IMG/VR virus record: IMGVR_UViG_3300012943_000001
Span: 103,743 to 167,742 of that record
Direction: 5' to 3' (one strand)
Length of the DNA: 64,000 bases
Source: a virus
Taxonomy: Duplodnaviria; Heunggongvirae; Uroviricota; Caudoviricetes
The translations under genes were made by a program, and so were the position numbers. The notes beneath the pieces were generated by a model. The model saw only the letters and a program-made list of their open reading frames with translations. It ran no database searches and was not told where the DNA came from. Numbering within the stretch: the stretch's first letter is position 1; each line of letters opens with the position of its first letter. This document shows, piece by piece, positions 25,571 through 61,170 of the stretch.

Positions 25571-26794
25571 ATGATTATCACTAGTCTCCTCGACCTCGAC
25601 CTGTATAAGCTGACGGTAGGCCAAGTCATCTTCAAAAACTTCCGCTTCGTCCGGGCGAAGTACCGCATGACGGTTCGCAATGGCAAGCAGATTAACTTCT
25701 GGCATGGAGACATCGCTCGCCAGATGGAAGTTGAGATTAAAGCTCTTGAAAACTTGAGTCTACAACCTGACGAGGCAGACTATCTTCGCAAGTTGGGTTT
25801 GGGATTCGAAGAGTCGTATCTACGTTTTCTTTCGAACAAGCCTATGGAAGGTTGCTTCGTTAGATACGTTCATCAAGAAAGCATAAAGTTTACAGACAAC
25901 GACTACGTTCCTGAAGTACATGGAGAATGGTGCAGAGCTATGCTTTACGAAATCTTCTGTCTTAGTATCGCGAATGAAATTTTCGCTAGGCAGTATTGCA
26001 GGTTCAATAATGTCAAATACGATTGGCTTACAGAGGCGGGAGAGGTTCGCCTTGCAAAGAAGATTGCATATCTTCAAGAACATAAAGCGGGAAACTACTG
26101 TAAACATCCGATGTCGATTTCGGAGTTCGGTACGCGTCGCCGGTTGAGTCATGCTTGGCAAGCTCATGTCGTCAAGGAACTCTATAGCAGCGGAGTAATC
26201 AATGCCACGAGTAACGTTTACTTCGGAAAGCTATTCGACATTCCTGTTCGCGGCACTTTCGGCCACGAGTTCACAATGGGTATGCAAGCCTTAACCCGCG
26301 TGCAAGACAGTCAGAAAGAAGCGTTGTGGCTTTGGCATAGAGAGTGGAATGGAAAGCTTTCACTTGCTTTAGACGATACGCTTGGCGATGCGAAGTTCGT
26401 CCAAGATTTTGATAAGGACTTAGCTATGGCTTATTCGGGCCTTCGTCACGATTCGGGCGAGCCAGAGGCGTGGACGGAAGACCGCATCACTATGTATCAT
26501 AGGCTCGACGTGAATCCAGAACAGAAGACTCTTTTGTACTCAGACGGGCTGGACGTTCATAAAGCGGTAGCACTACGCAACCTTGTGGGCTTACGAGCCA
26601 TTCCGAAGTTCGGTATCGGTACGAATTTTACCAACGATACGTTCTCGCCTGTCCCGCAGGTTGTCATGAAGATTGTTCATTGCAACGGTCAACATGTTGC
26701 AAAGCTTTCGAACAATCCCGCCAAGGCTTGCTGCGATGACCCTGAATATCTCCGCTACATCAAGCACATTTCGGGAGTGAAAGATTCAGCTTGA
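25571..26794 (+). CDS. pncB: nicotinate phosphoribosyltransferase
   Basis: N-term SLLDLDLYKLTVGQV typical of NAPRTase; 407 aa. Confidence 0.8.
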   Translation: MIITSLLDLDLYKLTVGQVIFKNFRFVRAKYRMTVRNGKQINFWHGDIARQMEVEIKALENLSLQPDEADYLRKLGLGFEESYLRFLSNKPMEGCFVRYVHQESIKFTDNDYVPEVHGEWCRAMLYEIFCLSIANEIFARQYCRFNNVKYDWLTEAGEVRLAKKIAYLQEHKAGNYCKHPMSISEFGTRRRLSHAWQAHVVKELYSSGVINATSNVYFGKLFDIPVRGTFGHEFTMGMQALTRVQDSQKEALWLWHREWNGKLSLALDDTLGDAKFVQDFDKDLAMAYSGLRHDSGEPEAWTEDRITMYHRLDVNPEQKTLLYSDGLDVHKAVALRNLVGLRAIPKFGIGTNFTNDTFSPVPQVVMKIVHCNGQHVAKLSNNPAKACCDDPEYLRYIKHISGVKDSA

Positions 26795-26822
26795 CTTTCC
26801 TAGAACGATTTTCATCCTCCTA
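26791..26822 (+). promoter_or_regulatory. conserved CTTGACTTTCC-type promoter upstream of nadE
   Basis: gcTTGACTttcctagaacgattttcatcc. Confidence 0.45.
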
Positions 26823-26826
26823 ACCC

Positions 26827-28545
26827 ATGAAAGTTCTCCTCGCCCAGCTTAATCCCGTCGTAGGTGACCTCGAAGGCAACTTTGCCAAGGTCCGCGAAGT
26901 CATTCTGAAGCACGCGGGCAGTCATGATTTGATTGTCTTTCCCGAGTTGACCCTCACTGGCTACCCGCCAAACGACCTGCTTCTCCGTAAGGGATTCGTG
27001 GACGAACAACTCGTCTACGTAGACAAGGTTCGCAAGCTTTCCTACCGTACGCCCGAATGCACCATCCTCATTGGTGCCGTGACGAACAATGAAGAGGTGG
27101 GTAAGCCTCTTCGCAACTCCGCCCTTGGGTTTAACAACGGACATCGTATCGTCACCTATCACAAGCAACTCCTCCCTACCTATAATATCTTCGACGAGAA
27201 TCGTTATTTTGAACCGGGCAATGGAGATGGTTGCGTCTTCCATATCAATACGAAGAAACACGGCAAGGTTGTCTTGGGTCTTCTTATTTGCGAAGACTGT
27301 TGGAATGATGAAGCTGTGTGCGACGCACCACTCTATCCAACCAATCCTGTTCAGAAGGTATTCGAGAACGAGTTCGACCTTCCTAAAGTACAGGCCGTCA
27401 TCACTCTCAACGCTTCCCCTTCGGACGTAGGCAAGCATTCGTATCGCTACACTATGTATTCGACTTTATCGGAGAAGTGTGGCGTGCCGTTCGTCTATGT
27501 TAATTCGGTAGGTGGGCAAGATTCGCTCGTGTTCGATGGACACAGTTTTGTTGTGGATGGCAAGTCGATTTGGTACGCCAAAGGATTTGTTGAAGACCTA
27601 TGGAGTGCGGAGATTCTGGTGCCACAGCCAAACATGCCCGCCCTTCAAGTCCCGCAGTATCATCGCGAGATGCTTATCATTGAGCATTTGAAGCTCGGCC
27701 TCAAAGACTATGTTACCAAGAACGGTTTTCAGAAGGTTGTTGTAGGTAGCTCGGGCGGCATTGATAGTGCCGTCGTACTCATGATTGCGAAGGAAGCCCT
27801 TGGTGCAGAGAACGTCTTTGCGGTTACTATGCCGTCGAAGTTTTCGAGTGAAGGTAGTTGGAAAGACTCGGAAGTCCTCTGTGATAACCTTGGCGTCAAG
27901 CTATACAACCGTCCAATCATCGACGAAGTTCTGGCTTCGATTGAAGCATTTAAGAAGTCGTTTGGTGTAGAGCCAAGCCGCATGACCATCGAGAATATGC
28001 AGGCCCGCATCCGTGGCCGCATCCTCATGGAGTTCAGCAATCATTTTGGTGCCCTCGTTCTATCGACTGGTAACAAATCGGAAATGAGTGTGGGTTACTG
28101 CACTATCTATGGTGACATGTGCGGTGGACTCAGCCTCATTGCAGACCTCTATAAGATGGAAGTCTATGCGGTCGCCAAGTTCCATAACGAGAATCATAGC
28201 GAGCCAATCATTCCTAAAGACATCGTGGACAAAGCCCCTTCGGCTGAACTCTGGGAAGGTCAGAAAGACACTGACAGCCTGCCTCCATATCCAGTCCTCG
28301 ACGCAGTTCTAAAGCTTTATTTGGAGCGTGACCTCATGTCGTACGAAGAGATTCAAGAGGCGAAGCTCCTTATCGAGAACATGAGCCTGAAGGATATCAA
28401 ACGAATCCTCAAGATGACGGACAACGCAGAGTTCAAACGTCGTCAGGCCGCACCTGTCATCCGTATTCATAAGCGTGCGTTCGGATTCGGTCGTAATCTA
28501 CCAATCACCCAACGCTACAAGGTCAGCTACGAAAACGTACTGTGA
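26827..28545 (+). CDS. nadE: glutamine-dependent NAD+ synthetase (nitrilase + NadE domains)
   Basis: MKVLLAQLNP nitrilase start; SGGIDSAVV PP-loop; 572 aa. Confidence 0.85.
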   Translation: MKVLLAQLNPVVGDLEGNFAKVREVILKHAGSHDLIVFPELTLTGYPPNDLLLRKGFVDEQLVYVDKVRKLSYRTPECTILIGAVTNNEEVGKPLRNSALGFNNGHRIVTYHKQLLPTYNIFDENRYFEPGNGDGCVFHINTKKHGKVVLGLLICEDCWNDEAVCDAPLYPTNPVQKVFENEFDLPKVQAVITLNASPSDVGKHSYRYTMYSTLSEKCGVPFVYVNSVGGQDSLVFDGHSFVVDGKSIWYAKGFVEDLWSAEILVPQPNMPALQVPQYHREMLIIEHLKLGLKDYVTKNGFQKVVVGSSGGIDSAVVLMIAKEALGAENVFAVTMPSKFSSEGSWKDSEVLCDNLGVKLYNRPIIDEVLASIEAFKKSFGVEPSRMTIENMQARIRGRILMEFSNHFGALVLSTGNKSEMSVGYCTIYGDMCGGLSLIADLYKMEVYAVAKFHNENHSEPIIPKDIVDKAPSAELWEGQKDTDSLPPYPVLDAVLKLYLERDLMSYEEIQEAKLLIENMSLKDIKRILKMTDNAEFKRRQAAPVIRIHKRAFGFGRNLPITQRYKVSYENVL

Positions 28546-40807: not shown

Positions 40808-41169
40808 GTCCGATTAAACAAAAAATCGCAATCGCGGAAGCGTGTGGTTGGGCGTGGCTTATGTACAATGCACGTCCCGTTCTGTTTGACGCGGACTTTT
40901 GGGCCAAGCATCCAGAAACAAAGAAGCACCAAATCACCGCAGAAGAATTGGCGGACTCGTATCAATTAGAGATTGGGATGGGCGGTCTTCCCGACTATCT
41001 AAACGACTTAAACGCAATGCACGAGGCGGAGAAGTTTTTAACATCAACAGACCTAGGTTGGAAATATATTGAAGTTCTTAAGAAAGTGACTTTCGAATTG
41101 CCTTGGTGTGCGACGGCCCGTCAACGAGCAGAAGCATTCCTTAAAACACTCGACCTTTGGACATCGTGA
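40804..41169 (+). CDS. hypothetical protein
   Basis: 121 aa. Confidence 0.5.
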   Translation: MSPIKQKIAIAEACGWAWLMYNARPVLFDADFWAKHPETKKHQITAEELADSYQLEIGMGGLPDYLNDLNAMHEAEKFLTSTDLGWKYIEVLKKVTFELPWCATARQRAEAFLKTLDLWTS

Positions 41170-41843
41170 GATACGAAGACAAAACACTTGAATTTAGGCA
41201 CTTTCTAAAAACCAACCTTCCGGGTCATGAAGCACTCGTTGATTACGTACTTCTGAATCCGAAGTTTATGTTATGGAGCGGCTGTTCTCATAAAGACCGC
41301 CATCATTACGGTATTGGTGGACTTCAATATCATACGTGGGAAGTTGTTCACCTTTGTAATGTGAACGCCTACACTATGGACATAATATGTAAGGGTAAGA
41401 AGGAGATAAATAAAGTTGTACTTCTCCTCGCCGCTTTGTATCATGACGTAGGCAAGATGTGGGATTATGTACCCGTAAAACCTTCAAGGCCCTCGGAAGA
41501 CTCTCCTGTAAGAGAGGTTGATTTTCAAGGATTGCAAGACTACGCAAGAAATGGAGCGGCAGACTTTATTCAATGGAAAGGTGCCAGTCACAAACGTACT
41601 ATCCATCATATTTCCCGCTCTGGTGTCGAATGGACTAAAGCTGTAACTCAGACTGGCGTGGGCAAAGAGATTGAAGACGAGGTTCTTCATTGCATCCTTT
41701 CCCACCACGGCCAAAGAGAGTGGGGCTCACCAGTTGCACCAAAGAGTCGTGAAGCATGGATGCTATTCCTTTGTGACGGCATCAGTGCAAGAATGAACGA
41801 CGCGGATTCATTTGATATGAAGGGGCAGGTTAAAAACGTATAA
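41157..41843 (+). CDS. HD-domain phosphohydrolase
   Basis: H...LLAALYHDVGK HD motif. Confidence 0.65.
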   Translation: MDIVRYEDKTLEFRHFLKTNLPGHEALVDYVLLNPKFMLWSGCSHKDRHHYGIGGLQYHTWEVVHLCNVNAYTMDIICKGKKEINKVVLLLAALYHDVGKMWDYVPVKPSRPSEDSPVREVDFQGLQDYARNGAADFIQWKGASHKRTIHHISRSGVEWTKAVTQTGVGKEIEDEVLHCILSHHGQREWGSPVAPKSREAWMLFLCDGISARMNDADSFDMKGQVKNV

Positions 41844-42118
41844 TGGGCGTCCAATACGAAACCTTCATGGGTGGTTACACTCCGATATGTAACAACTGCG
41901 GGGTTTCTCTATGTTGGGATATCAGTCCAAATGATTACGAAGAAGATAAAGACTTCTGGGAACAGTGGACTTGCAAAGATTGTAATCCGAACTATCAAGG
42001 AGCCTTAAAACGTTGGAGAGTCGAAAATGTCAAACGAACTAGAAGCGGAAGCGGCAAGACTGAAGGTCATACAAGACAAGGACCAGAAATGGCGAAAAGG
42101 CCCAAAGATAACACGTAA
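41843..42118 (+). CDS. small zinc-ribbon protein
   Basis: CNNCG...CKDC; 3' end overlaps the next gene. Confidence 0.4.
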   Translation: MGVQYETFMGGYTPICNNCGVSLCWDISPNDYEEDKDFWEQWTCKDCNPNYQGALKRWRVENVKRTRSGSGKTEGHTRQGPEMAKRPKDNT

Positions 42119-42329
42119 AGATATAGACCTTGCAATTAAGAACGGAGGCGAATTAAGAATGCCTCCAGACGAATTCGAGCAAGTAGACAAGACAATTAAA
42201 TTTGGAAAGCACAAAGGCAAAACATATAGCTTCGTATACAAAAACGATTCAAGATGGTTCTATTGGGCTATGGACAACATCCAAGGGTTCAGAGCCAAAG
42301 CAGAGGCGGCAAAATATCAAAATGATTAA
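42027..42329 (+). CDS. small protein with an FGKHKGKTY motif
   Basis: Good RBS GGAGAG-8nt-ATG; shares a FG.[HY]KG.TY...W motif with 42806..42997. Confidence 0.45.
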   Translation: MSNELEAEAARLKVIQDKDQKWRKGPKITRKDIDLAIKNGGELRMPPDEFEQVDKTIKFGKHKGKTYSFVYKNDSRWFYWAMDNIQGFRAKAEAAKYQND

Positions 42330-42816
42330 GAAATTTAGAGTAAGAGACATGGCACGCAAGTGCTGGTTAGATACCACAGAAACGTCACTACACGCGTTTA
42401 CAGACTACTTCATAGACTTTAGTGGTCTTGTCAGGGCGACCGAAGGGGCTATAGGAGAGTCTTCTAAAATGGAGTATGCGAATTTAGACCATACAGATTA
42501 TGGAGTGCGTCCTATAGTCTTTACAAGAGAAGAGGAACGCTTCAAGGTCCAGCAATACATCGGAATGAAGGACAAGGACGGTAAGGAAATCTTCGAGGGT
42601 GATATTGTAGGAGGGTTTGGCCGCGAATTTGTAGTCGAATTTGGCATTGCCCGACGTACTATAGGTAGTGGTACGTCCGCTTACGAGATTGACATTCCCT
42701 GTTTCTATTTCCTAGATACATCTACAAGCGAGAAAGTCTTTCCTATATGCGAGACAGACTCCCGCCTTCACGACCTAGCCTCCTTAACTATTACTGGCAC
42801 TATATTTGATAAGTAA
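42322..42816 (+). CDS. YopX-like phage protein (second paralog)
   Basis: MIKKFRVRDMARK N-term; start at the internal ATG overlapping the upstream stop. Confidence 0.5.
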   Translation: MIKKFRVRDMARKCWLDTTETSLHAFTDYFIDFSGLVRATEGAIGESSKMEYANLDHTDYGVRPIVFTREEERFKVQQYIGMKDKDGKEIFEGDIVGGFGREFVVEFGIARRTIGSGTSAYEIDIPCFYFLDTSTSEKVFPICETDSRLHDLASLTITGTIFDK

Positions 42817-42997
42817 AATGGTACTTCTTATTGGCGACGAATCCAACGCGACGCCAGCTTCAGATAACAAACTAACATTCGGTTGCTATAAGGGACAAAC
42901 TTATCAGTGGCTTTACGAAAACGACGGGGAATATTGGACATGGTGTATGAAAAACGTGTCGTGGTTCAGAGATAAGGTAAACAAACTAGTGTGCTGA
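42806..42997 (+). CDS. small protein with an FGCYKGQTY motif
   Basis: Paralogous motif to 42027..42329. Confidence 0.4.
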   Translation: MISKMVLLIGDESNATPASDNKLTFGCYKGQTYQWLYENDGEYWTWCMKNVSWFRDKVNKLVC

Positions 42998-43005
42998 AAT
43001 TGGTC

Positions 43006-43038
43006 TTGACTTTCCCAAAACACCACCAACACTGACCG
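43006..43038 (+). promoter_or_regulatory. conserved CTTGACTTTCCCAAAAC-type promoter upstream of the RNA ligase gene
   Basis: tcTTGACTttcccaaaacaccaccaacactg. Confidence 0.45.
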
Positions 43039-43041
43039 CTT

Positions 43042-44154
43042 ATGAAAATCGTCCTCTCAGATATCGACCCAGAGTCTTTCATGGTTCATCCGCACGAGAT
43101 TGCGGGTGAGACCTGCTATCTGGTTCAGCCTATCCATATCGGTGCAAAGTGGACCAAATCCAACTTGCACCAACGGTCCTCCGTGTGGAACGCTCAGGGC
43201 GAACTCGTTTCCGCTTCCTTCAAGAAATTCTTCAATTGGGCAGAGCAGCCAGACCTTGCATACACTCCTTTCTCCCTGACGGCGAACGGTGGATGTGAGT
43301 TGATTGAGAAAATCGACGGTTCTACTCTTATCGTTTCGAGGTATAAGGGCCAGACTATCATCCGTACTCGTGGTACAACCGACGCCTCTAAACTCGACAA
43401 CGGTCATGAAATCGAGTGGTTGAAAGACAAGTATCCTCGTGCGTTCAAGTTCCCAGATAAAGATGGGAATGACTACGAGACCGCACCGTACTCATTGATT
43501 TATGAGTGGGTATCTCCAGAGAATAAAATCGTATTGAATTATGGTGAAGACCCAGACATTTATTTGACTGCGGTTATCAACCATGACACCTATACACTTT
43601 GGCCTCAAGACGAAGTAGATGTTCTCGCAACCCTTCTTCTAGTGAAACGTCCAGCTCGCTATAACTTCGCGTCCGTGGCAGAAATGCTTGCGGCTGTCGA
43701 AGACCTAAAGGGCAAGGAAGGTCTCTGCGTCTACTGTAACAAGGGTCAAGATATCCGTAAGGTTAAGTCCGCATGGTATCTCGCGTTGCACCGTATGAAG
43801 ACGGAGTTTGGTTCGTACGAGCGTGTAGTAGACTTCTACTTCACGATGAACAAGCCAACCTATCAGGAATACTACCAGTTCATTGTAGATAACTACGATT
43901 TCGAATTGGCAGAGCAGTGCCGTGGTCATATCTCAAAGGTATGCGACGGCATGAAAGAGGTTGCCGTTCTGATTGCGGCTATGACCGAAAAGGTTGAACC
44001 ACTCCGTACGAAGTCCCGCAAGGATGCAGCCGCAGTAATTCTTCAAGCTTATGGCTTGACAAATCGCTCAGGCATGGCATTCTCCATCCTCGACAACAAG
44101 CCACTCAAGGTAGACGACTACAAAAAACTCCTGTACCAAGTAACGAAGGACTAA
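43042..44154 (+). CDS. ATP-dependent RNA/DNA ligase-family nucleotidyltransferase (Rnl-like)
   Basis: Motif I EKIDGS, motif IV EGLCVY, motif V RKVKS. Confidence 0.6.
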   Translation: MKIVLSDIDPESFMVHPHEIAGETCYLVQPIHIGAKWTKSNLHQRSSVWNAQGELVSASFKKFFNWAEQPDLAYTPFSLTANGGCELIEKIDGSTLIVSRYKGQTIIRTRGTTDASKLDNGHEIEWLKDKYPRAFKFPDKDGNDYETAPYSLIYEWVSPENKIVLNYGEDPDIYLTAVINHDTYTLWPQDEVDVLATLLLVKRPARYNFASVAEMLAAVEDLKGKEGLCVYCNKGQDIRKVKSAWYLALHRMKTEFGSYERVVDFYFTMNKPTYQEYYQFIVDNYDFELAEQCRGHISKVCDGMKEVAVLIAAMTEKVEPLRTKSRKDAAAVILQAYGLTNRSGMAFSILDNKPLKVDDYKKLLYQVTKD

Positions 44155-44155
44155 A

Positions 44156-44479
44156 ATGATTCCCGACAAGCTCCTTAATCTCAGCTATACCAAGCACGCG
44201 ATTAGGGAAGCTTGTTGCGAACGTTTTGGTAGTATAGAGCATCGTCCCAAGAATTTTATAAAGGTGGGTTGCAAGGCGGTGACCGAAAGTGCAGAGAAGC
44301 CTAACGTTATCAAAGCTACCTATATCTATGACGACTGGCGAGATGTCATTTTAGTCATAGACACCATAACTAAAACCGTAATTACAAACTACCTCAAACC
44401 CGCCCAAAACAAAGGCGTATTCAAAGGTCGATTTCGAATTCAGCCAAAGCATGAGCTACAAACTTTTTCTCGACGATGA
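44156..44479 (+). CDS. hypothetical protein
   Basis: 107 aa. Confidence 0.45.
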   Translation: MIPDKLLNLSYTKHAIREACCERFGSIEHRPKNFIKVGCKAVTESAEKPNVIKATYIYDDWRDVILVIDTITKTVITNYLKPAQNKGVFKGRFRIQPKHELQTFSRR

Positions 44480-44813
44480 ACGCATTCCTCAAAAAGTTTT
44501 TTGGGTTCCGCTTCCACTAGGCCCTTGGGTAATTGTCCGTTCTTACAACGAGTTCGTAGAGCACATCACAAAGAACGGTCTACCTGAGTTCATCTCTTTT
44601 GACCACGATTTATCCTTCGAAGACCAGAACGTTGGGGGAAAATCCCCAGACGAATACAAGGAAAAGACCGGGATGCACTGTGCTCACTGGCTGGTTAACT
44701 TTTGCCTTGACAATAACCTCAAGTGTCCTAACTTCACGGTCCACAGTATGAATCCAGTTGGTGCCAGAAACATCCGCTGCCTCCTCCAAGACTTTATCAT
44801 CTCACAAGAATGA
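44451..44813 (+). CDS. hypothetical protein
   Basis: 120 aa. Confidence 0.45.
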   Translation: MSYKLFLDDERIPQKVFWVPLPLGPWVIVRSYNEFVEHITKNGLPEFISFDHDLSFEDQNVGGKSPDEYKEKTGMHCAHWLVNFCLDNNLKCPNFTVHSMNPVGARNIRCLLQDFIISQE

Positions 44814-45262
44814 CGCTTTCAAATCTAGCTTTCAAACTCGCCGTGTTCTACCACGAGGGACAGACGCGTGAAAACGGTGTACCGTATATCACTCACCCTA
44901 TCGCCGTGGCAGAGATTGCCGTCGAATCAGTTGGCAACCTCTATTCTGAGGAAGTCATCGACATCATCAAAGCAATCGCTGACCTCCACGACGTTTTAGA
45001 AGACTGCGAAAAGAAGGGTGCGAGTGTCCAGTCTCTCAAGGAAAGCTTTAAGGGCTTCGCCAGAGCTGACGACGTAATCGACGCCGTAGTTTGCCTCACG
45101 AAAGTTGCGGGCGAATCATATTTCGTATATCTACAACGTGTCAAAGCTAACGAGTTTGCCAGAATCGTCAAGCTCGCAGACCTCCAACATAACCTCGGCG
45201 ACCTGCCTCCGGGCAAACGCCGAGACAAGTATCTCCTCGCTCAGTATTTCCTCCTCAACTAA
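44810..45262 (+). CDS. small alarmone hydrolase (RelA/SpoT HD domain, Mesh1-like)
   Basis: FYHEGQTRENGVPYITHP and LHDVLEDC match (p)ppGpp hydrolase HD motifs; 150 aa. Confidence 0.7.
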   Translation: MTLSNLAFKLAVFYHEGQTRENGVPYITHPIAVAEIAVESVGNLYSEEVIDIIKAIADLHDVLEDCEKKGASVQSLKESFKGFARADDVIDAVVCLTKVAGESYFVYLQRVKANEFARIVKLADLQHNLGDLPPGKRRDKYLLAQYFLLN

Positions 45263-45263
45263 A

Positions 45264-45938
45264 ATGAAGATTCCAAAGTTCGATACAGTTAAGACGAAGA
45301 TTTTCTTCGGAAGCGACTTCCACTTGTCGCACAAGCAGCCATTCATTTGGCAGGCACGTGGCTTCAATTCGATTGAGGAGCACGCTAATTTCATCATTGA
45401 CGAGACGAACAAGGTTGTTGGTGAAGACGACATCCTGTTTTACTTGGGCGATTTCTCGCTCAACTCGACGCCTGACGAGACGCGTGCATACTTCCGTCGA
45501 TTCAAGACGAAGCACATCTATTACATTTGGGGCAACCACGAGTCCAACACTTGGGCTATCTATCAGGACGCAATCCGGGAGAAGTTCAAGGGTCTTCCAT
45601 TCGTGCCTCCAGAGGTTTATCATTTCACATGGGAGAACGTGACGTTCTTTGGTAAGAGCCTTATGGTTAATATCAATGGACAAATCGTAATCCTATCGCA
45701 CTTCGCCCATTACATTTGGGATACGATGCAGCACGGTGCGTGGAATATTTGCGGCCATAGTCATGGCAACTGTGCGGAGCTTGTACCAGAGGCGGCATTT
45801 GGTAAGGTTCTAGACGTTGGCGTGGATGTCGCCGTAAAGCTCAACGCAAGTCCTGTCGTATCGTTTGAAGAGGTGGAGGAAATCCTCTACAAGAAGGCGA
45901 TTCAAGTTCGAGACCATCACAATAAGCAGACAACATGA
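45264..45938 (+). CDS. calcineurin-like metallophosphoesterase (polynucleotide 3'-phosphatase candidate)
   Basis: GDFHL, GDF, GNHE motifs; start at the internal ATG immediately after the upstream stop. Confidence 0.7.
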   Translation: MKIPKFDTVKTKIFFGSDFHLSHKQPFIWQARGFNSIEEHANFIIDETNKVVGEDDILFYLGDFSLNSTPDETRAYFRRFKTKHIYYIWGNHESNTWAIYQDAIREKFKGLPFVPPEVYHFTWENVTFFGKSLMVNINGQIVILSHFAHYIWDTMQHGAWNICGHSHGNCAELVPEAAFGKVLDVGVDVAVKLNASPVVSFEEVEEILYKKAIQVRDHHNKQTT

Positions 45939-46414
45939 TTTCAGAGTTCCATATGTTAGTTGGTATCGTTGGCTCTGGCAAGAGCACGTTATGCAAGAAG
46001 TTACTTGTAGATAAGCAAGCGACTCTTGTCAGCTCTGACGATATACGCCTAGAGGTTTGTGGCAACATGACAGACCAATCCAAGAATGGCTTAATCTTTA
46101 CAAAGATTATTCCTGAGAGGATTAAGGCTGGACTGAAGGCGGGCAACGTTGTGTACGACGCAACGAACTATAACCGCAAGTCTCGCCGTGAGTGGTTGAC
46201 TCTAGCCAAGTCTCTAGGTGCGAGGACGGTAGTTCATCAAATGCTAACCCCATTCGATGAGTGCCGTCGTCGTAATGCCGCACGCCTAGAGCGTGTTGTG
46301 CCTGACTTCGTAATCGACAAGATGGTTGCGGGTTGGGAAGCTCCAGACATGAACATCGAGAAAATCGACGAAATCATCCTAGTATCTGAGAGTGGCGTTG
46401 CGAAAGTTGCTTGA
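45935..46414 (+). CDS. pnk: polynucleotide 5'-kinase domain protein (T4 Pnk kinase-like)
   Basis: P-loop GIVGSGKST; VVYDATNYNRKSRREW resembles the T4 Pnk DxTN...R segment. Confidence 0.7.
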   Translation: MISEFHMLVGIVGSGKSTLCKKLLVDKQATLVSSDDIRLEVCGNMTDQSKNGLIFTKIIPERIKAGLKAGNVVYDATNYNRKSRREWLTLAKSLGARTVVHQMLTPFDECRRRNAARLERVVPDFVIDKMVAGWEAPDMNIEKIDEIILVSESGVAKVA

Positions 46415-46442
46415 CTTTCCCGCCATTCTCGGTACTCTTAAC
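46411..46442 (+). promoter_or_regulatory. conserved CTTGACTTTCC-type promoter
   Basis: gcTTGACTttcccgccattctcggTACTCTtaa. Confidence 0.45.
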
Positions 46443-46465
46443 GTTTTACCTAATCAAATCTTACT

Positions 46466-46933
46466 ATGTCCAAAATCAATCTCGCCAAAGCCCTCAAAGT
46501 CAAAAATTCCCTTATCAGCGAAATCAATCGCTCCAAGGCTGTCTTTGCTCGTGAAAACTCCCGTAAGGAAGGCTCCACGTCCAAGGTTGACCGCGAACAG
46601 CTCTGGGACCAAATCTCCGTCAAAACCCAGCAGTTGGTCAAGCTGAAGGGGCAAATCGCCGCCGCGAACATTGCCATCTATCCAACGCTTGCCCTTATGG
46701 AGGAGGCTAAGTCTGCAATCACGTTCCTACAGCAGCTCAATACTACAGACGGAAAGGTCGTTGAGCATAGCCGCTATGGTACGGGTCCAAACCTTGAGAC
46801 GAACTTCTCCGCCTTCATCACGCAAGATGGGGTGGATAAGAGGGTCAACGAGTTTCAGAAGATTATCGAAGACGCACAAGATGCGGTGGACGCCTATAAC
46901 GCAACCACATTCATCGAAGTCTCATTCGTCTAA
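46466..46933 (+). CDS. hypothetical protein
   Basis: 155 aa after the promoter at 46411. Confidence 0.5.
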   Translation: MSKINLAKALKVKNSLISEINRSKAVFARENSRKEGSTSKVDREQLWDQISVKTQQLVKLKGQIAAANIAIYPTLALMEEAKSAITFLQQLNTTDGKVVEHSRYGTGPNLETNFSAFITQDGVDKRVNEFQKIIEDAQDAVDAYNATTFIEVSFV

Positions 46934-47151
46934 CACTTTGGGCCGCTGGTTCGGCGTCTAACAGGCACGGGAGTATTTTAATGACGAAAGTCATTGGAAA
47001 TCTATCTATAACGATAATGATAAGGAGTAAAGGCTTCGGCCCTAATAAGGTTCAACGCTCATGAACTCAAAAGTTATCAATTAAAGATTAAGAATCAAAA
47101 CTCTGTTTCCCTCACGTTTGTTATTCGCCGGATTAGCGGTTCATTTATTTT

Positions 47152-47304
47152 ATGATAAGATTCGCCATCGCGTTCTTATTGGGAGCGGCAGTCGCACTTT
47201 GGTTCCCCTTGTTTATCAAGGCGGTCCTCTGCCTCATTGGGTACGTAATCGTTGCGTCCTTAGCTACTCTCCTCTTCTTGGCTATCGTGGGTAGCAAGGC
47301 TTGA
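47152..47304 (+). CDS. small hydrophobic peptide (~50 aa, two TM)
   Basis: Manual ORF MIRFAIAFLLGAAVALWFPLF...; not in the ORF track (<60 aa). Confidence 0.35.
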   Translation: MIRFAIAFLLGAAVALWFPLFIKAVLCLIGYVIVASLATLLFLAIVGSKA

Positions 47305-47332
47305 CTTTACTGAAACGGCTACTAGAATGAAT
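47301..47332 (+). promoter_or_regulatory. conserved CTTGACTTTACTGAAACG-type promoter (-10 TAGAAT)
   Basis: gcTTGACTttactgaaacggctacTAGAATgaa. Confidence 0.55.
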
Positions 47333-47355
47333 TTCATGATTAACTCCCAACCCTA

Positions 47356-47649
47356 ATGGCTATTGTCAAAACAACCCGCTATTACCTGAATGTTTTTGGA
47401 AGCATTCAGAGAGACTTCAAGACTACAGCGTCCGAAGGCTCCAACAATAGAGACGACGTATTCGAATATACATTCCCAAACGACGAACTATTCTTTCAGC
47501 ATTTTTATCGACTCAATATCAAAACCGCTCAGGGCAAACTTCTAAAGGGTAAAACCTTGGTGGGGGTCTATACAAGAAGGGGTCTGGAAAAGAAAGACCG
47601 CCCTCGCCCCCGAATGAACAGCCAAAAATTCAGAGAACGCGACGAATGA
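47356..47649 (+). CDS. hypothetical protein
   Basis: 97 aa after the promoter at 47301. Confidence 0.45.
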   Translation: MAIVKTTRYYLNVFGSIQRDFKTTASEGSNNRDDVFEYTFPNDELFFQHFYRLNIKTAQGKLLKGKTLVGVYTRRGLEKKDRPRPRMNSQKFRERDE

Positions 47650-47858
47650 AAAAAGCATTTACATTAGTGGAAATCATGGTCGTCGTTTGTATCATAGGGG
47701 TTGTAGCCGCTATGGCAATTCCCGCCTTTCAAAAGCTCAAAGAGAGTAAAGCGAATGCAGATAAACGCAGGTCTCCACACAGAGTCGAACAAGTACAATC
47801 CTATACTCCTCCCGAGGAAATCATAATCAACGGTTATAAATATCGCCTAGTAAGGTAA
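47646..47858 (+). CDS. type IV pilin-like (prepilin N-terminal methylation motif) small protein
   Basis: KKAFTLVEIMVVVCIIGVVAAMAIP is a canonical class III signal / pilin N-terminus. Confidence 0.5.
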   Translation: MKKAFTLVEIMVVVCIIGVVAAMAIPAFQKLKESKANADKRRSPHRVEQVQSYTPPEEIIINGYKYRLVR

Positions 47859-47860
47859 CA

Positions 47861-48889
47861 ATGGCAGTGGCAAGAAAATTAGCGTCCATCCAAAAAATTC
47901 TAGACATACTTCCCCATGCAAACGCGGACACGTTAGAGATTGCCCGCGTCTTGGGTTGGAAGGTTTGCGTCAAGAAGGGCGAGTTCAAAGTAGGAGACTA
48001 CTGTGTCTACATGGAGATTGACTCTATGTTGCCGCAGAAACCTGAGTTTGAATTCCTTCGTTCCAAAGGATTCAGGATTAAAACCGTCAGGCTCCGTGGA
48101 GAAGTGTCTCAGGGCATCGCATTCCCACTATCTATCCTTGATGGATATAAGGTTCACGACCAGCATCAGGAGATACCTTACTTAGAAGATTTGGATGTCA
48201 CTGAGCTTATTGGCGTCGTCAAGTACGAGCCCGCAATCCACTTCGCTATTGGCGGAGAGATTAAGGGTCATTTCCCAGAGTTTTTGAAGAAGACGGACGA
48301 GACCCGCATCCAAGCCTTTCCTCGTCTCCTAGACCGCTACAAGGGCGAACGCTTCTACGTTACAGAGAAGTTGGACGGCTCTTCCATGACCGTATATTTC
48401 AAAGACGGTATGTTTGGTATTTGCAGTCGTAACTACGAACTTAGAGAGACTGAAGGTAACGCTCTATGGGCAACCGCAAAGAGGCTCCACCTACCCGAGA
48501 AACTTACGGCTTTTGGTCGCAATATTGCGATTCAGGGTGAGCTTATCGGTCCGGGCATCCAAGGTAACAAATACAAGGTCAAAGAACATCAGTTCCGTCC
48601 GTTCAACGCTATCAACATCAATGAGGCGAAACGTATTGGAGCTGTCGAACTGTTCTCTTTGTGCTCTGCACTAGACCTAGAGCCCGTTCCTGTAATCGAC
48701 TTCTGGTTCGTTCTTAACCATACTGTAGACGATATAGTGTCGTACGCAGAGGGTAAGAGTGCTTTGAATTCAAACACGGAAAGAGAGGGTGTCGTCATTC
48801 GTTACATCGAAGAGAAGTACGACGAAGACATTGGAGACTTGAGCTTCAAAGTCATCAGCCCTAACTTCCTGCTTAAATCAGACGAGTAA
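47861..48889 (+). CDS. RNA ligase, DRB0094/Rnl5 family
   Basis: N-terminal OB LASIQKI...ADTLEIARVLGWKVCVKKGEFKVGDYCVYMEIDS; motif I EKLDGSS. Confidence 0.75.
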   Translation: MAVARKLASIQKILDILPHANADTLEIARVLGWKVCVKKGEFKVGDYCVYMEIDSMLPQKPEFEFLRSKGFRIKTVRLRGEVSQGIAFPLSILDGYKVHDQHQEIPYLEDLDVTELIGVVKYEPAIHFAIGGEIKGHFPEFLKKTDETRIQAFPRLLDRYKGERFYVTEKLDGSSMTVYFKDGMFGICSRNYELRETEGNALWATAKRLHLPEKLTAFGRNIAIQGELIGPGIQGNKYKVKEHQFRPFNAININEAKRIGAVELFSLCSALDLEPVPVIDFWFVLNHTVDDIVSYAEGKSALNSNTEREGVVIRYIEEKYDEDIGDLSFKVISPNFLLKSDE

Positions 48890-52992: not shown

Positions 52993-53067
52993 GGCCCGGT
53001 AGTTTAGAAGTTAGAATACCTGTCTTTCACACAGGAGATGAGGGAGCGTTACCCTCTCGGGCTACCA
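52993..53067 (+). tRNA. tRNA-Glu(TTC)-like, unusual T-loop
   Basis: Loop CTTTCAC; D-loop TAGAAGTTAG as in Glu; T-loop AGCGTTA non-canonical. Confidence 0.45.
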
Positions 53068-55639: not shown

Positions 55640-55716
55640 TATGTCGAACGAACCATCGGTTGGACGACCTGACTGTTAATCAGGTGAAGCAAGTTCGAAC
55701 CTTGCCGACATAGCCA
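55640..55716 (+). tRNA. tRNA-Asn(GTT)-like, atypical D-arm
   Basis: Stem CCTGA/TCAGG, loop CTGTTAA; TTCGAAC; GCCA end; D-stem poorly paired. Confidence 0.4.
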
Positions 55717-55799: not shown

Positions 55800-55839
55800 A
55801 ATTTCAGTTGAAAAATTAACGAGTCCTGTTAATATCAGG

Positions 55840-56391
55840 ATGTCGGTTCAATCAGATAGGGTCAAACTTTGGAGAAAACAAACCAAGCTACGTATCGTTC
55901 AGGCGATGGGTGGAAAGTGTCAGTGTTGCGGATACAACAAATGTGTAGACGCCTTAGAGATTCATCACCTAGACCCAGAGGAGAAGTCCTTTACGGTCTC
56001 TGCATTAAGAGCGAATCACGGAAGCTGGGACTCCATAGTGAAAGAACTTAGAAAGTGTGTAATGCTTTGCGGCATCTGTCACGCAGAGTACCACGCGGGC
56101 ATGAGAGAAATTCCCGCAGACGCCCAAAGATTCAACGAAGAATACGTTGACTACAAAGCGTTGGGCAAAGAAAAGAGTTTCTGCCCAATTTGTAAAGAAG
56201 AGAAAGAGGAGTTCAACAAAACATGCTCGTACAAGTGTGCGGCTGTATACAAGGCTCCAATAGATTGGTCTAAGTACGACTTGAAGAAAATGTACGTGGA
56301 CGAAAAGAAAACTCAAACAGAGATTGGCACAATAGTTGGCCTGTCTGATGTTGCGGTTAGTAAGCGACTTAAAAAGTTGGGTCTCAAATAA
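55840..56391 (+). CDS. HNH homing-type endonuclease
   Basis: CQCCGYNKCVDALEIHHLDP...CGICHAEYH; inserted between tRNA genes. Confidence 0.7.
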   Translation: MSVQSDRVKLWRKQTKLRIVQAMGGKCQCCGYNKCVDALEIHHLDPEEKSFTVSALRANHGSWDSIVKELRKCVMLCGICHAEYHAGMREIPADAQRFNEEYVDYKALGKEKSFCPICKEEKEEFNKTCSYKCAAVYKAPIDWSKYDLKKMYVDEKKTQTEIGTIVGLSDVAVSKRLKKLGLK

Positions 56392-56398
56392 TTTTTAT

Positions 56399-56477
56399 AC
56401 GAACGTAGTGCTAGTCTGGTTAAGCGACTCGATTTGGAATCGAGATTTCGCGGGTTCAAATCCCGCCGTTCGTACCA
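56399..56477 (+). tRNA. tRNA-Pro(TGG)
   Basis: Stem CTCGA/TCGAG, loop TTTGGAA; TTCAAAT; ...CGTTCGTACCA. Confidence 0.55.
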
Positions 56478-56496
56478 TTTGTTAGTGTTAGTATAT

Positions 56497-56574
56497 CCGT
56501 CATTAGCGTAATCTGGCTATCGCGTTTCGTTTGGGGCGAAGAGACTGCTGGTTCGAATCCAGCATGGCGGACCA
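56497..56574 (+). tRNA. tRNA-Pro(TGG), second copy
   Basis: Loop TTTGGGG; TTCGAAT; ...ATGGCGGACCA; long D-loop. Confidence 0.5.
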
Positions 56575-56579
56575 TTTAT

Positions 56580-56652
56580 TCACTCGTAGTTTAGTATAAA
56601 ATTCCCTCGCTTTAGAGGGTGACACGCGGCTTATAACCCGTCGAGTGAGCCA
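56580..56652 (+). tRNA. tRNA-like gene with a 6-nt anticodon loop (GCTTTA)
   Basis: Perfect acceptor TCACTCG/CGAGTGA + GCCA; stem CCCTC/GAGGG closes a 6-nt loop; no GG in the D-loop. Confidence 0.35.
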
Positions 56653-56717
56653 TTCTTGCAAGACCGTGAAGCTTGAGGTTGCAACCTTGAGTGAGTGACG
56701 GAAAGCGAAACGTACGT

Positions 56718-56790
56718 GGTGAAGTAACCCAGTGGAAGAGGTAGGCCCGTTAAAGGGCCTCAAGCGTTGGTTCGAATCCAACCTTTGCCG
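56718..56790 (+). tRNA. tRNA-like gene with a 6-nt anticodon loop (GTTAAA), no encoded CCA
   Basis: Acceptor GGTGAAG/CTTTGCC (2 G.U); stem GGCCC/GGGCC; T-arm GTTGG-TTCGAAT-CCAAC. Confidence 0.35.
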
Positions 56791-56875
56791 TATGCGTACT
56801 GAGTAGCATAACTTTATCTAGTGGTTCGCCACTTAGAACCTTCAGGTCTCCATGAAGCAAAACCGGAGACATTAT

Positions 56876-56952
56876 GGGCGTGTGGCGTAATTGGTAAACG
56901 CGTTTGACTCAAAATCAAAATTCTGTCGGTTCGAGTCCGACCTCGCCTACCA
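56876..56952 (+). tRNA. tRNA with anticodon CAA (Leu-like decoding) but a class I body
   Basis: Stem TTTGA/TCAAA, loop CTCAAAA; TTCGAGT; ...CTCGCCTACCA; one acceptor mismatch. Confidence 0.45.
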
Positions 56953-56956
56953 CTTT

Positions 56957-57087
56957 GGGGAGTTAGTTAAAAACTAATCATCCACTTCGACATTTCTCTG
57001 GCAACAGTAGCTATGAAGAGGATTACATCGGAAAAACAAATGCCTGTAAAGCGTTAATAGGAGGTTCGAATCCTCCACTCCCCACCA
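56957..57087 (+). tRNA. elongated tRNA-like gene (~131 nt) with an internal insertion
   Basis: GGGGAGT...(approx 70-nt insert)...GGAGGTTCGAATCCTCC ACTCCCC A CCA; perfect 7-bp acceptor. Confidence 0.35.
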
Positions 57088-57150
57088 ATTTACTTTTCAA
57101 CGCTCGAAGTCCTACGGGACAAGGGCCGAAAAGAAACAGAAAGGATAACA

Positions 57151-57237
57151 ATGGAATTCGTAACTATTGCTATCGCTGCTTATGCGGTTATCGGTTTGCT
57201 ATATCAAATGGCAAAAGCGTACCCGGCAGTTAAATAA
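57151..57237 (+). CDS. small hydrophobic peptide (28 aa)
   Basis: RBS AGGATAACA-ATG; MEFVTIAIAAYAVIGLLYQMAKAYPAVK; followed by an intrinsic terminator. Confidence 0.3.
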   Translation: MEFVTIAIAAYAVIGLLYQMAKAYPAVK

Positions 57238-57246
57238 GAAAACAAA

Positions 57247-57278
57247 TGGGGGCGGCTCTGTAATGGGGTCGCCCCTTT
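57247..57278 (+). terminator. rho-independent terminator after the small peptide ORF
   Basis: GGGGGCGGCtctgtaatggggtCGCCCC + TTTCTATT. Confidence 0.5.
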
Positions 57279-57364: not shown

Positions 57365-57442
57365 GGACGCGTAGCTCAGTTATGTAAGAGCATCGGCTTG
57401 AAACACCGAGGGTCGGCGACTCAGCATCGCCCACGTCCACCA
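57365..57442 (+). tRNA. tRNA-Phe(GAA)-like, non-canonical T-loop
   Basis: GGACGCGTAGCTCAG...loop TTGAAAC; T-loop CTCAGCA; ACCA. Confidence 0.4.
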
Positions 57443-57709: not shown

Positions 57710-57781
57710 TTCATCGTAGCTTAATGGTTAAGCAATTGTCTCAAACACAGTATATTGTAGGTTCAAATCCTACCGATACCG
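57710..57781 (+). tRNA. tRNA-like (loop CTCAAAC), weak acceptor, no CCA
   Basis: D-arm GCTT-AATGGTTA-AAGC; T-arm GTAGG-TTCAAAT-CCTAC; acceptor only 4 bp. Confidence 0.3.
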
Positions 57782-58026: not shown

Positions 58027-58103
58027 GGCCGTTTAGCCCAATTGGCAGAGGCGTCTGCCTTAGAAGCAGAATGTTGAGGGTTCGAGTCCCTTGGCGGCTA
58101 CCA
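58027..58103 (+). tRNA. tRNA with anticodon TAG (Leu-like decoding), short variable arm
   Basis: Stem TCTGC/GCAGA, loop CTTAGAA; TTCGAGT; ...GGCGGCTACCA. Confidence 0.5.
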
Positions 58104-58635: not shown

Positions 58636-58712
58636 GGCCGGATGACGGAATTGGCATACGTATTGGTCTAAGAAGCCAAGTTTTGTGGGTTCGACTCCCA
58701 CTTCGGCTACCA
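58636..58712 (+). tRNA. tRNA, anticodon read as AAG (uncertain)
   Basis: Stem TTGGT/GCCAA, loop CTAAGAA; TTCGACT; ...TTCGGCTACCA. Confidence 0.4.
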
Positions 58713-58717
58713 CTTTT

Positions 58718-58809
58718 GGGAGTGTAATGTAATGTAGCATCGCACGTTTTATAAACGTGGTGCAGTAGATAACTGCCGAGTATGGGTTCAAGTCCCTTCG
58801 CTCCTACCA
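58718..58809 (+). tRNA. type II tRNA with anticodon read as TAT (unusual)
   Basis: Stem CACGT/ACGTG, loop TTTATAA; variable hairpin GCAGT-AGATA-ACTGC; TTCAAGT; ACCA. Confidence 0.4.
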
Positions 58810-59337: not shown

Positions 59338-59721
59338 ATGAAACAAAAGATTTTGAAACTCCTATCCGAAGGAAAGAGTCAGAAGGAAGTGGTAAGACTG
59401 TTGGGTTGCTCATCGGCGACGGTCTGGTATCATTCCTCAGATAAAGCGAAAGCAATAGTTCTACGGAACAACGCAAAGAACAAAACCGACTCTAAGAGAA
59501 GATTGAAAGAAGAGTTCGGAGGAAAGTGTATGTGTTGTGGATACAACAAAAGCTTCAGAGCGTTACACTTTCATCATAAAGACCCGTCTAAAAAGGACGA
59601 CGATATCAATAGCCTTGTAAGTAGAGGTCAGATTACACAAGCACGAGAAGAAGCAAAGAAATGCGTTCTTGTCTGTGCAAACTGCCACGCGGAAATCCAC
59701 GAAGGTATCCGCACCATATAA
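59338..59721 (+). CDS. HNH homing-type endonuclease (paralog of 55840..56391)
   Basis: CMCCGYNKSFRALHFHHKDP...CANCHAEIH. Confidence 0.7.
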   Translation: MKQKILKLLSEGKSQKEVVRLLGCSSATVWYHSSDKAKAIVLRNNAKNKTDSKRRLKEEFGGKCMCCGYNKSFRALHFHHKDPSKKDDDINSLVSRGQITQAREEAKKCVLVCANCHAEIHEGIRTI

Positions 59722-61083: not shown

Positions 61084-61170
61084 GCCGAATTGGCTCAGTG
61101 GCAACAGCACCGCTTTTGTAAAGCGGCGAGGGAAACCTCTACGTCGGTTCGAGTCCGACATTCGGCTCCA
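61084..61170 (+). tRNA. type II Leu-like tRNA, anticodon loop TTTGTAA (assignment uncertain)
   Basis: GCCGAATTGGCTCAGTGG (Leu-like 5' end); variable hairpin GAGG-GAAA-CCTC; TTCGAGT; ...ATTCGGCTCCA. Confidence 0.5.

Follow-up and report, generated by a model that had tools for sequence, protein, structure and literature searches.

What is the place of two adjacent tRNA-shaped genes with six-nucleotide anticodon loops in the tRNA array of a huge phage: do they decode, do they serve some other role, or are they relics? The question is raised by a 64,000-nucleotide (nt) stretch of Caudoviricetes DNA (IMG/VR record IMGVR_UViG_3300012943_000001, positions 103,743 to 167,742), hereafter the window, in which the two genes, candidate 1 and candidate 2, lie on the same strand (Table 1; unless a locus number precedes them, coordinates are those of the window). 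A preliminary description of the sequence had likened them to frameshift-suppressor or decoding-defective tRNAs and had connected the triplets UUA and UAA in their loops to the ochre codon and to leucine. Our analysis leads us to favor, at middling confidence, the reading that both are degenerate, non-decoding tRNA paralogs in a fast-evolving phage array.

Two cloverleaves with six-nucleotide loops

Candidate 1 reads, from 5' to 3', UCACUCG UA GUUU-AGUAUA-AAAU U CCCUC-GCUUUA-GAGGG UGAC ACG(C)GG-CUUAUAA-CCCGU CGAGUGA G CCA, a cloverleaf of 21 pairs and one bulge. Its acceptor stem is perfect and is followed by GCCA, and its CCCUC/GAGGG stem closes the 6-nt loop GCUUUA, all as first described. 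Neither G18G19 in the D loop (AGUAUA) nor the T-loop consensus (CUUAUAA) is present. The gene is in phase with the array, starting 5 nt past the CCA of the second of two tRNA-Pro genes and running, as its neighbors do, into a T-rich spacer (TTCTTG). Candidate 2 reads GGUGAAG UA ACC(C)-AGUGGAAG-(A)GGU A GGCCC-GUUAAA-GGGCC UCAAGC GUUGG-UUCGAAU-CCAAC CUUUGCC G, a cloverleaf of 20 pairs with a class-II-type D arm. The elbow nucleotides are in place (AGUGGAAG in the D loop and UUCGAAU in the loop of a canonical T arm), G73 is followed by UAUG, and CCA is not encoded. Here too the acceptor stem, the T arm, the GGCCC/GGGCC stem closing GUUAAA and the missing CCA agree with the preliminary description.

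Both 6-nt loops are found in the minimum-free-energy folds and withstand the check for standard 7-nt loops that the same description had proposed. For candidate 2, the form with the 6-nt loop has a computed energy of -23.7 kcal/mol, or -24.8 kcal/mol with a sixth anticodon-stem pair (A26-U43) that is formed in the minimum-free-energy fold; opening the closing C-G pair to give an 8-nt loop brings it to -20.1 kcal/mol, and the 7-nt form, which corresponds to canonical numbering with the loop GUUAAAG and a C29-C41 mismatch, to -14.0 kcal/mol. The corresponding values for candidate 1 are -18.7 kcal/mol, -14.1 kcal/mol (with the closing C-G pair opened, leaving a 4-bp stem) and -3.3 kcal/mol. The cost of a 7-nt loop is ~10 kcal/mol for candidate 2 and ~15 kcal/mol for candidate 1, in which U33 is reached in a 7-nt frame just with a stem of three pairs out of five and a U33-type loop cannot be regained by any single insertion or deletion (indel). 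In both candidates the loop has the form G-N4-A and its closing pair is C-G. We also note that CUUUA of the candidate 1 loop (56610-56614) is complementary to UAAAG of candidate 2 (56751-56755, four loop bases and the closing G), such that a loop-loop contact is possible on paper.

Standard tools treat the two genes very differently. ARAGORN reports candidate 2 as tRNA-?(Stop|Leu)(ta), and the Rfam model RF00005 matches it at 39.5 bits (E=7.6e-5 for the whole window), which is above the 29-bit gathering threshold and is the lowest score among the class-I-length tRNAs of the array (the others score 42-69 bits). The Infernal alignment draws a 5-bp stem AGGCC/GGCCU and an 8-nt loop, CGUUAAAG, with one inserted base 5' of U33. 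By these matches, candidate 2 is a real tRNA relative. Candidate 1 has no Rfam tRNA match at E<=10 in a 641-nt search or at E<=1 in a search of the array, and no ARAGORN call even with a lowered threshold; the metazoan-mitochondrial mode (ARWEN) alone calls it, at exactly 56580-56652, as 'mtRNA-Stop(tta)' with three of five stem pairs. Infernal scoring, which had been suggested as a check, bears out candidate 2 but not candidate 1.

A strict descriptor was applied that requires a perfect 7-bp acceptor stem, NCCA and a perfect 5-bp hairpin at the anticodon position. On the + strand it has eight matches, which are six annotated tRNAs, a tRNA-Asn-like gene (55640-55716) and candidate 1; on the - strand it has none, and dinucleotide-shuffled windows average 0.03 matches each. 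Candidate 1 is therefore not a chance match, and neither is candidate 2.

Parentage, charging and recoding

The phage's own tRNA-Leu genes are all 77 nt long with no long variable arm, and keep a class-II-type D arm and A73; this short type is found in at least 18 unique genes of related arrays. Candidate 2 has in common with these tRNAs the D arm NCCC-A..GG.AG-AGGN (a class-II-type 3-bp stem with a 13-22 mismatch), which is carried by Leu(UAG) at 58027, by a Leu(UAA) gene elsewhere on the same contig (L103:15760-15836) and by short Leu tRNAs of other loci. Its 6-nt variable loop, UCAAGC, compares with UCAGU or UCAGG in the family. When a covariance model made from the single sequence of candidate 2 was run against 0.8 Mb of related arrays, the best foreign match (L076:2970-3042, 48.9 bits) was a 73-nt short tRNA-Leu(UAA) with CCA and the loop CUUAAAA, and the other matches were Asn and further ordinary tRNAs. 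The addition of one A to the A-run of candidate 2 gives GUUAAAA, which equals that family loop except at position 32. The leucine connection proposed at the outset is borne out to this extent.

Candidate 2 also departs from the family at invariant features. Both A73 and the 7-nt loop Y32-U33-NNN-R37-N38 are present in 18 of 18 unique short Leu tRNAs and neither is present in candidate 2. In an alignment of these tRNAs, candidate 2 departs at four columns conserved at >=90% (including A73, which is G; one of the four is a gap column in the 3' trailer), whereas true members depart at zero to two. A73 is the main determinant for leucyl-tRNA synthetase in E. coli, and seryl-tRNA synthetase would need a long variable arm. 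As candidate 2 has neither, its charging is improbable, and it probably cannot be charged. It is also redundant, because an intact tRNA-Leu(UAA) (59 bits, with CCA) lies 12.4 kb downstream, at L103:15760-15836. Its highest global identity to another tRNA of the contig is to that Leu(UAA) gene, at 61%, which is within the background (mean 57%, standard deviation 4.7%); descent from the short tRNA-Leu family is suggested by shared idiosyncrasies and not by significant identity, and the parent isotypes of both candidates are tentative. If candidate 2 did arise from the phage's own short tRNA-Leu family, with UAA at the anticodon position, its loop would be the family-type 7-nt loop made one A shorter and closed by C-G.

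Two other leads were dropped. A tRNA-Asn origin of candidate 2 rested mainly on a common T arm. L024:7622-7772 resembles candidate 2 in its acceptor stem (GGGGAGG/CCUUUCC, with G3-U70), D arm, T arm and G73, and has 91 nt at the position of the anticodon arm; it was considered as a homologue with an insert, and the intron mode of ARAGORN gave no tRNA call.

For candidate 1, a single-sequence covariance model run against the same arrays finds just tRNA-Glu(UUC) genes of other phages (29-33 bits) and a tRNA-Ile. With tRNA-Glu it has in common the 4-nt variable loop and UA-GUUUAG at positions 8-15, and with the foreign Glu genes also G73; with the Gln and Asn genes of the array it has in common U1-A72 and G73. 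Its identity to the Glu(UUC) gene of the window is 58%, which is background. Two other tRNAs of the array have no G18G19 and no T-loop consensus: this Glu(UUC) gene (T loop AGCGUUA) and a second Phe(GAA)-like gene (CUCAGCA). Both have normal 7-nt anticodon loops and CCA, and score 51.5 and 42.1 bits. The Glu(UUC) gene is the sole UUC gene, although the GAA codon is frequent. Candidate 1 appears to belong to this 'non-canonical elbow' subgroup and to have, in addition, an unusable anticodon loop; starting from a tRNA of that kind, it would have lost a usable U33-centered 7-nt loop and gained the T-stem bulge.

Do the candidates decode anything unusual? Recoding was assessed over 74 kb out of the 205 kb of the contig. 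When the standard code is applied, the first 52 kb are 94% covered by 85 + strand open reading frames (ORFs) that do not overlap, with no broken genes; 52 of these ORFs end in TAA, 29 in TGA and four in TAG. Few Leu codons are rarer than UUA (118 of 1403, or 6.7 per 1000), which the intact Leu(UAA) gene already serves. Five in-frame ORF pairs, including tandem paralogs, are split by a single TAA. These were considered as sites of readthrough and set aside, as their number is about that expected for tightly packed, co-oriented genes (P~0.085 that all five are TAA). No split gene needing a +1 shift is evident in the ORF map, which was not searched systematically for them. We found no support for ochre suppression or frameshifting by either candidate. 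The proposed relation to the ochre codon is unsupported: TAA is the ordinary stop, with no signal of readthrough in the ORF map or stop-codon counts, and the UUA frame of candidate 1 needs the stem with three of five pairs.

In known frameshift-suppressor tRNAs the loop is enlarged, to 8-10 nt, and not contracted. Our search of the literature turned up no account of anticodon loops of 6 nt. According to the review PMC5009743, the few tRNAs in nature whose loops depart from the standard size, those of phages among them, have no known role in frameshifting. Of the two terms first proposed for the candidates, 'decoding-defective' fits, and 'frameshift-suppressor' is unsupported. In related arrays there are amber-suppressor-type tRNA(CUA) genes (L022/L069:2831-2905 and L051:1725-1797), hinting at TAG recoding in some members of the phage group.

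Related arrays and the genomic setting

To place the candidates among relatives, we used as a marker the HNH protein encoded 190 nt upstream of candidate 1, which retrieved ~100 metagenomic loci. All are tRNA arrays in which its homologues are embedded, paralleling segB of the T4 tRNA cluster. The closest relatives in IMG/VR, JGI metagenomes and GTDB genomes are at most 51-61% identical to it, and in a search of 5.8 billion proteins the source contig came back together with L098 (60% identity), the one relative of use; the remaining contigs were too short. Exact-pattern scans of IMG/VR for either candidate or for the conserved neighboring tRNA-Pro gave nothing relevant; the single match, L034, is an unrelated high-GC chance match. 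BLAST of GenBank phages for the candidates returned nothing, the covariance models returned ordinary tRNAs alone from the related arrays, such that no conserved family of either candidate was found there, and a descriptor scan found no other CCA-bearing element with a 6-nt loop. A relaxed descriptor for non-7-nt loops gave mostly false positives in coding regions.

Only L098 has the same local order, in which the HNH gene is followed by two tRNA-Pro genes, a first tRNA position (X), a spacer of ~65-70 nt, a second position (Y), a Leu-type tRNA (acceptor GGGCGUG in both phages) and an rnaC-like RNA. Orthologous canonical tRNAs of the two loci are 77-84% identical (Pro 84%, Val 79%, Arg(CCU) 78%, Tyr 77%). 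By contrast, position X of L098 holds a weak tRNA-Ala(UGC) (35 bits, bulged acceptor stem), and position Y holds a 57.8-bit tRNA with the 7-nt loop UUAACAA (anticodon AAC), G73 and no CCA. Identity to these counterparts is at the background level, with 53% for candidate 1 and 59% for candidate 2. The 6-nt loops are thus not conserved in the only syntenic relative, and the different, partly aberrant tRNAs at both positions indicate rapid turnover of this stretch of the array. The spacer of L098 (2351-2420) has GGTTGCAA and GGAAAG in common with that of the window. The tRNA of L098 at the candidate 2 position (2414-2499) is enclosed in a further helix, GGAAAGU/GCUUUCC+G, which is the very acceptor stem found in the tRNA-Ser genes of the clade, as if one tRNA lay within the ends of another.

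Loops of other than 7 nt are rare in the related loci, with ARAGORN flagging at most two of 651 unique tRNAs (<=0.3%). For one of the two, inspection by eye allows a reading with a normal loop, and the second (L031:4256-4327) resembles tRNA-Pro(UGG) minus one loop base, which fits occasional indel damage.

The window is contained in a 205,482-bp contig of an uncultivated huge phage (ENA ERZ27256383, k141_2352669). Its G+C content is 43-51%, its convincing ORFs are all on the + strand and include a DnaE-type polymerase, and megablast and blastn found no similar DNA among GenBank phages. A co-oriented array of ~48 tRNA or tRNA-like elements extends from 52.6 kb to the end of the window: 42 called by ARAGORN, three added by Rfam (57365, 57713 and 57945), the Asn-like gene, a 130-nt RNA and candidate 1. 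It goes on beyond the window with Val(GAC), two Met(CAU) and Leu(UAA). CCA is encoded in 46 of the 48 elements, the exceptions being candidate 2 and the element at 57713-57777. Between a promoter-like site and the first terminator-like hairpin lie, in order, the HNH gene, two tRNA-Pro genes, candidates 1 and 2, a tRNA-Leu(CAA) and the 130-nt RNA; the consensus scan found no terminator-like site on the + strand before that hairpin. From this position both candidates are probably co-transcribed with their neighbors. In the folded RNA the 3' end of the spacer between them (~56712-56717) can pair with 56795-56800, extending the acceptor helix of candidate 2.

Table 1. Window coordinates of the two candidates, their parts and the surrounding features
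Feature	Coordinates	Strand	Remarks
Candidate 1, 73-nt tRNA-shaped gene	56580-56652	+	From sequence, fold, energies and descriptor against shuffles
Acceptor stem	56580-56586/56642-56648	+	UCACUCG/CGAGUGA, 7 Watson-Crick pairs
D arm	56589-56602	+	GUUU-AGUAUA-AAAU
Stem at anticodon position	56604-56608/56615-56619	+	CCCUC/GAGGG
Loop	56609-56614	+	GCUUUA, 6 nt
Variable loop	56620-56623	+	UGAC, 4 nt
T arm	56624-56641	+	One bulged C
G73; CCA	56649; 56650-56652	+	CCA encoded
Spacer between candidates	56653-56717	+	65 nt; 9-bp hairpin at 56671-56692, loop UGCA
Candidate 2, 73-nt tRNA-derived gene	56718-56790	+	From ARAGORN, Rfam, fold and family comparison
Acceptor stem	56718-56724/56783-56789	+	GGUGAAG/CUUUGCC, 7 pairs; wobbles U3-G70 and G4-U69
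D arm	56727-56742	+	Class-II-type
Stem at anticodon position	56744-56748/56755-56759	+	GGCCC/GGGCC; possible sixth pair A26-U43 (56743/56760)
Loop	56749-56754	+	GUUAAA, 6 nt
T arm	56766-56782	+	Canonical
G73	56790	+	
Inferred transcription unit	55808-57276	+	Consensus scan only
Promoter-like site	55808-55835	+	
HNH homing-endonuclease gene	55840-56391	+	C-terminal helix-turn-helix; PHROG 35854, E=7e-32; inside the tRNA array
Terminator-like hairpin	57248-57276	+	
Second HNH homing-endonuclease gene	59338-59721		Inside the tRNA array
tRNA-Glu(UUC)	52993-53067		
tRNA-Asn(GUU)-like gene	55640-55716	+	
130-nt tRNA-like RNA	56956-57085		
tRNA-Phe(GAA)-like gene	57365-57442		
tRNA-Leu(CAA)-like element	57713-57777		
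77-nt tRNA-Leu genes	56876-56952, 58027-58103, 58636-58712		Fourth at L103:15760-15836
Long-variable-arm tRNA, UAU	58718-58809		92 nt
Long-variable-arm tRNA, UGU	61084-61170		87 nt
HD protein	41157-41843		
T4 Rnl1-like RNA ligase	43042-44154		
Metallophosphoesterase	45105-45938		
Second RNA ligase	47861-48889		PHA02142 OB fold

Several other RNAs of the array are unusual. The 130-nt RNA combines an acceptor-type helix of 8 bp, which ends in A-CCA, with a T arm (GGAGG-UUCGAAU-CCUCC), a hairpin resembling an anticodon arm (loop CUGUAAA, with GUA), a small D-like hairpin and, between them, an insert of ~55 nt, and has a fold z-score of -3.2. It resembles T4 rnaC, which likewise has a canonical T arm, and its counterpart in L098 (~2780-2895) has GAGRATTACATCG, the T arm and CCA in common with it. 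The Asn-like gene (acceptor UAUGUCG/CGACAUA, GCCA, loop CUGUUAA, odd D arm) is absent from the ARAGORN and Rfam gathering output and scores 29.1 bits in a lax search. The element at 57713-57777 scores 52 bits over model positions 4-67. It forms only four acceptor pairs, encodes no CCA and is probably a tRNA pseudogene that has been truncated. The long-variable-arm tRNA with UAU recurs in L017, L018, L019, L048 and L076, and that with UGU in L076.

A gene set resembling RNA repair, comprising an HD protein, an Rnl1-like ligase, a metallophosphoesterase and a second ligase, lies directly upstream of the array (41157-48889). Auxiliary genes unusual for a phage are found at 15463-16866, 25571-28545, 6096-7583 and 8393-10879, encoding a PARP-like protein (WGR and regulatory domains), NAPRTase with glutamine-dependent NAD synthase, spermidine synthase and a ClpB-like disaggregase.

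Competing readings and known systems

If the candidates are degenerate paralogs, their precursor would be co-transcribed with the neighboring tRNAs, and the two RNAs would probably be cut out yet would not act as normal decoders. Several observations weigh against this. Every helix of both candidates is intact, and yet they are 58-61% identical to all other tRNAs of the contig, which is the background level; as long neutral decay would break helices, the damage must be recent unless selection still maintains the fold. The adjacency of two such elements is unlikely if they arose independently, given the rate in relatives. Candidate 1 retains a perfect acceptor stem, CCA and array phasing. Elbow loss alone is no mark of a pseudogene, since the Glu(UUC) gene at 52993 and the Phe-like gene at 57365 have no canonical elbow and have normal anticodon loops. 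From the tRNA at position Y of L098, the G73 and missing CCA of candidate 2 may be ancestral rather than damage, and the parentage of both candidates is proposed from idiosyncrasies at background identity. The intact helices, the adjacency and the acceptor stem and CCA of candidate 1 keep our confidence no higher than middling. Should the two be relics, they would illustrate how, in the turnover of a phage tRNA array, minor alterations of the anticodon loop and the 3' end abolish decoding while the fold persists. Standard annotation overlooks candidate 1 and labels candidate 2 an undetermined tRNA, which bears on how phage tRNA repertoires are counted and on how alternative genetic codes are inferred from 'suppressor-like' calls.

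The strongest competitor, which we consider possible though unlikely, is that the candidates are functional non-decoding tRNA-like RNAs, such as small stable RNAs of the kind of T4 rnaC and rnaD, elements of precursor processing or structure, or mimics for nucleases or tRNA-binding enzymes. The retention of all helices while single-stranded functional positions deviate would be accounted for directly, as would the adjacency of two odd elements with C-G-closed G-N4-A loops and the CCA and phasing of candidate 1. There is precedent in the T4 cluster, in which segB is followed by two small stable RNAs, and the layout of the window is alike, including the rnaC-like RNA at 56956-57085. The RNA ligases, metallophosphoesterase and HD protein encoded upstream also fit, and phage tRNAs are known as countermeasures to anticodon nucleases (PMC10264068, PMC11464382, PMC11555353). 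On the other hand, covariance models, descriptor, IMG/VR patterns and BLAST of GenBank phages returned no conserved family, the positional counterparts in L098 have 7-nt loops, and there is no precedent for contracted-loop tRNA decoys, PMC10264068 making no mention of indels or decoys. If functional, the candidates would be the first natural tRNA-like RNAs with contracted anticodon loops to be given a role. They would have it in a phage with a visible investment in tRNA supply and in RNA repair, and would be relevant to how phages counter tRNA-targeting defenses. A further reading, in which they form a deliberately maintained pair of tRNA mimics, expressed and processed like tRNAs and serving either as recoding tRNAs (in the 8-nt-loop form, +1 at UUA-N, or weak UAA readthrough) or as decoys or competitors for host anticodon-loop nucleases, is improbable.

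It is quite improbable, too, that the candidates are charged and active on the ribosome, with candidate 2 reading UUA-N through its 8-nt loop CGUUAAAG (a +1 or quadruplet decoder like SufJ) and candidate 1 acting as a weak ochre suppressor with the anticodon UUA. Infernal does draw candidate 2 in that form, at a cost of just 3.6-4.7 kcal/mol, and ARWEN does label candidate 1 'Stop(tta)'; U1-A72, G73 and G10 of candidate 1 are as in the Gln and Asn tRNAs of the array, and the tRNA(CUA) genes of relatives suggest that recoding occurs in the clade. However, TAA is the commonest stop codon, the standard code gives a dense map with no broken genes, and the TAA-split ORF pairs are no more than packing predicts. 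Candidate 2 has neither the A73 that is invariant in its family nor the long variable arm for seryl-tRNA synthetase, the UUA frame of candidate 1 comes with a poorly paired stem and a non-canonical elbow, and odd-loop tRNAs in nature are not known to frameshift.

Candidate 2 could instead be a working second tRNA-Leu(UAA) in the canonical register (27-31/39-43), with CCA added post-transcriptionally. Its 73-nt length and its other arms match standard numbering, the canonical register yields U33, UAA and A37, and it would be the only UAA anticodon in the window; tRNAs with no encoded CCA can mature, as T4 tRNA-Pro and tRNA-Ser do. Against this, that register is ~10 kcal/mol weaker than the slipped stem, residue 73 is G rather than the A of all 18 family members, the contig already has an intact Leu(UAA) gene, and the Rfam score is the lowest of its length class, such that we regard this proposal as very unlikely. 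It is scarcely credible that errors of sequencing or assembly, in the form of indels within homopolymer runs, made the loops short: the data are metagenomic and both loops do contain 3-base runs (UUU and AAA), but the ENA contig (with a MEGAHIT-style k141 name) differs from the window by one substitution (53801) across 6.5 kb and is identical to it across both elements, an extra base gives candidate 1 no canonical loop, two independent errors 140 nt apart are improbable, and G73, the missing CCA, the D and T loops and the T-stem bulge are independent of homopolymer length.

How, then, do the candidates compare with known systems? T4 rnaC (species 1) and rnaD (species 2) also lie at the end of a tRNA cluster that contains a homing endonuclease gene, and their function is unknown. 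They differ from the candidates in length (119-139 nt), are not cloverleaf-sized and have no sequence similarity to them; the better rnaC analogue in the window, given the canonical T arm of rnaC, is the 130-nt RNA. The frameshift-suppressor tRNAs sufA6, sufB2 and SufJ resemble the candidates in having a non-standard loop, and candidate 2 can be drawn with 8 nt, but candidate 2 favors 6 nt and has lost, in G73, the identity element of its presumed parent. Candidate 1 is reminiscent of metazoan mitochondrial tRNAs in its A/U-rich D and T loops with neither G18G19 nor T-Psi-C, and is called by the mitochondrial finder only; the likeness is one of shape, as candidate 1 is phage-encoded, carries an encoded CCA and has no proper 7-nt anticodon loop. 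The short tRNA-Leu family resembles candidate 2 in the class-II-type D arm, variable-loop motif, T loop and UAA triplet, and differs from it in residue 73, in the sizes of the anticodon and variable loops (6 nt each in candidate 2) and in encoding CCA.

A close parallel is with the tRNA pseudogenes and aberrant tRNA genes of large phage arrays, such as the non-standard-loop tRNAs noted in a group of mycobacteriophages (PMC5009743), which likewise are cloverleaves with a deviant loop size and no known decoding role that occur sporadically within dense, co-oriented arrays. The candidates differ from these in that their loops are contracted to 6 nt rather than enlarged, in that they are adjacent with intact helices, and, for candidate 1, in the missing elbow. 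Our best reading is that the two candidates belong with these known aberrant tRNA genes of phage arrays.

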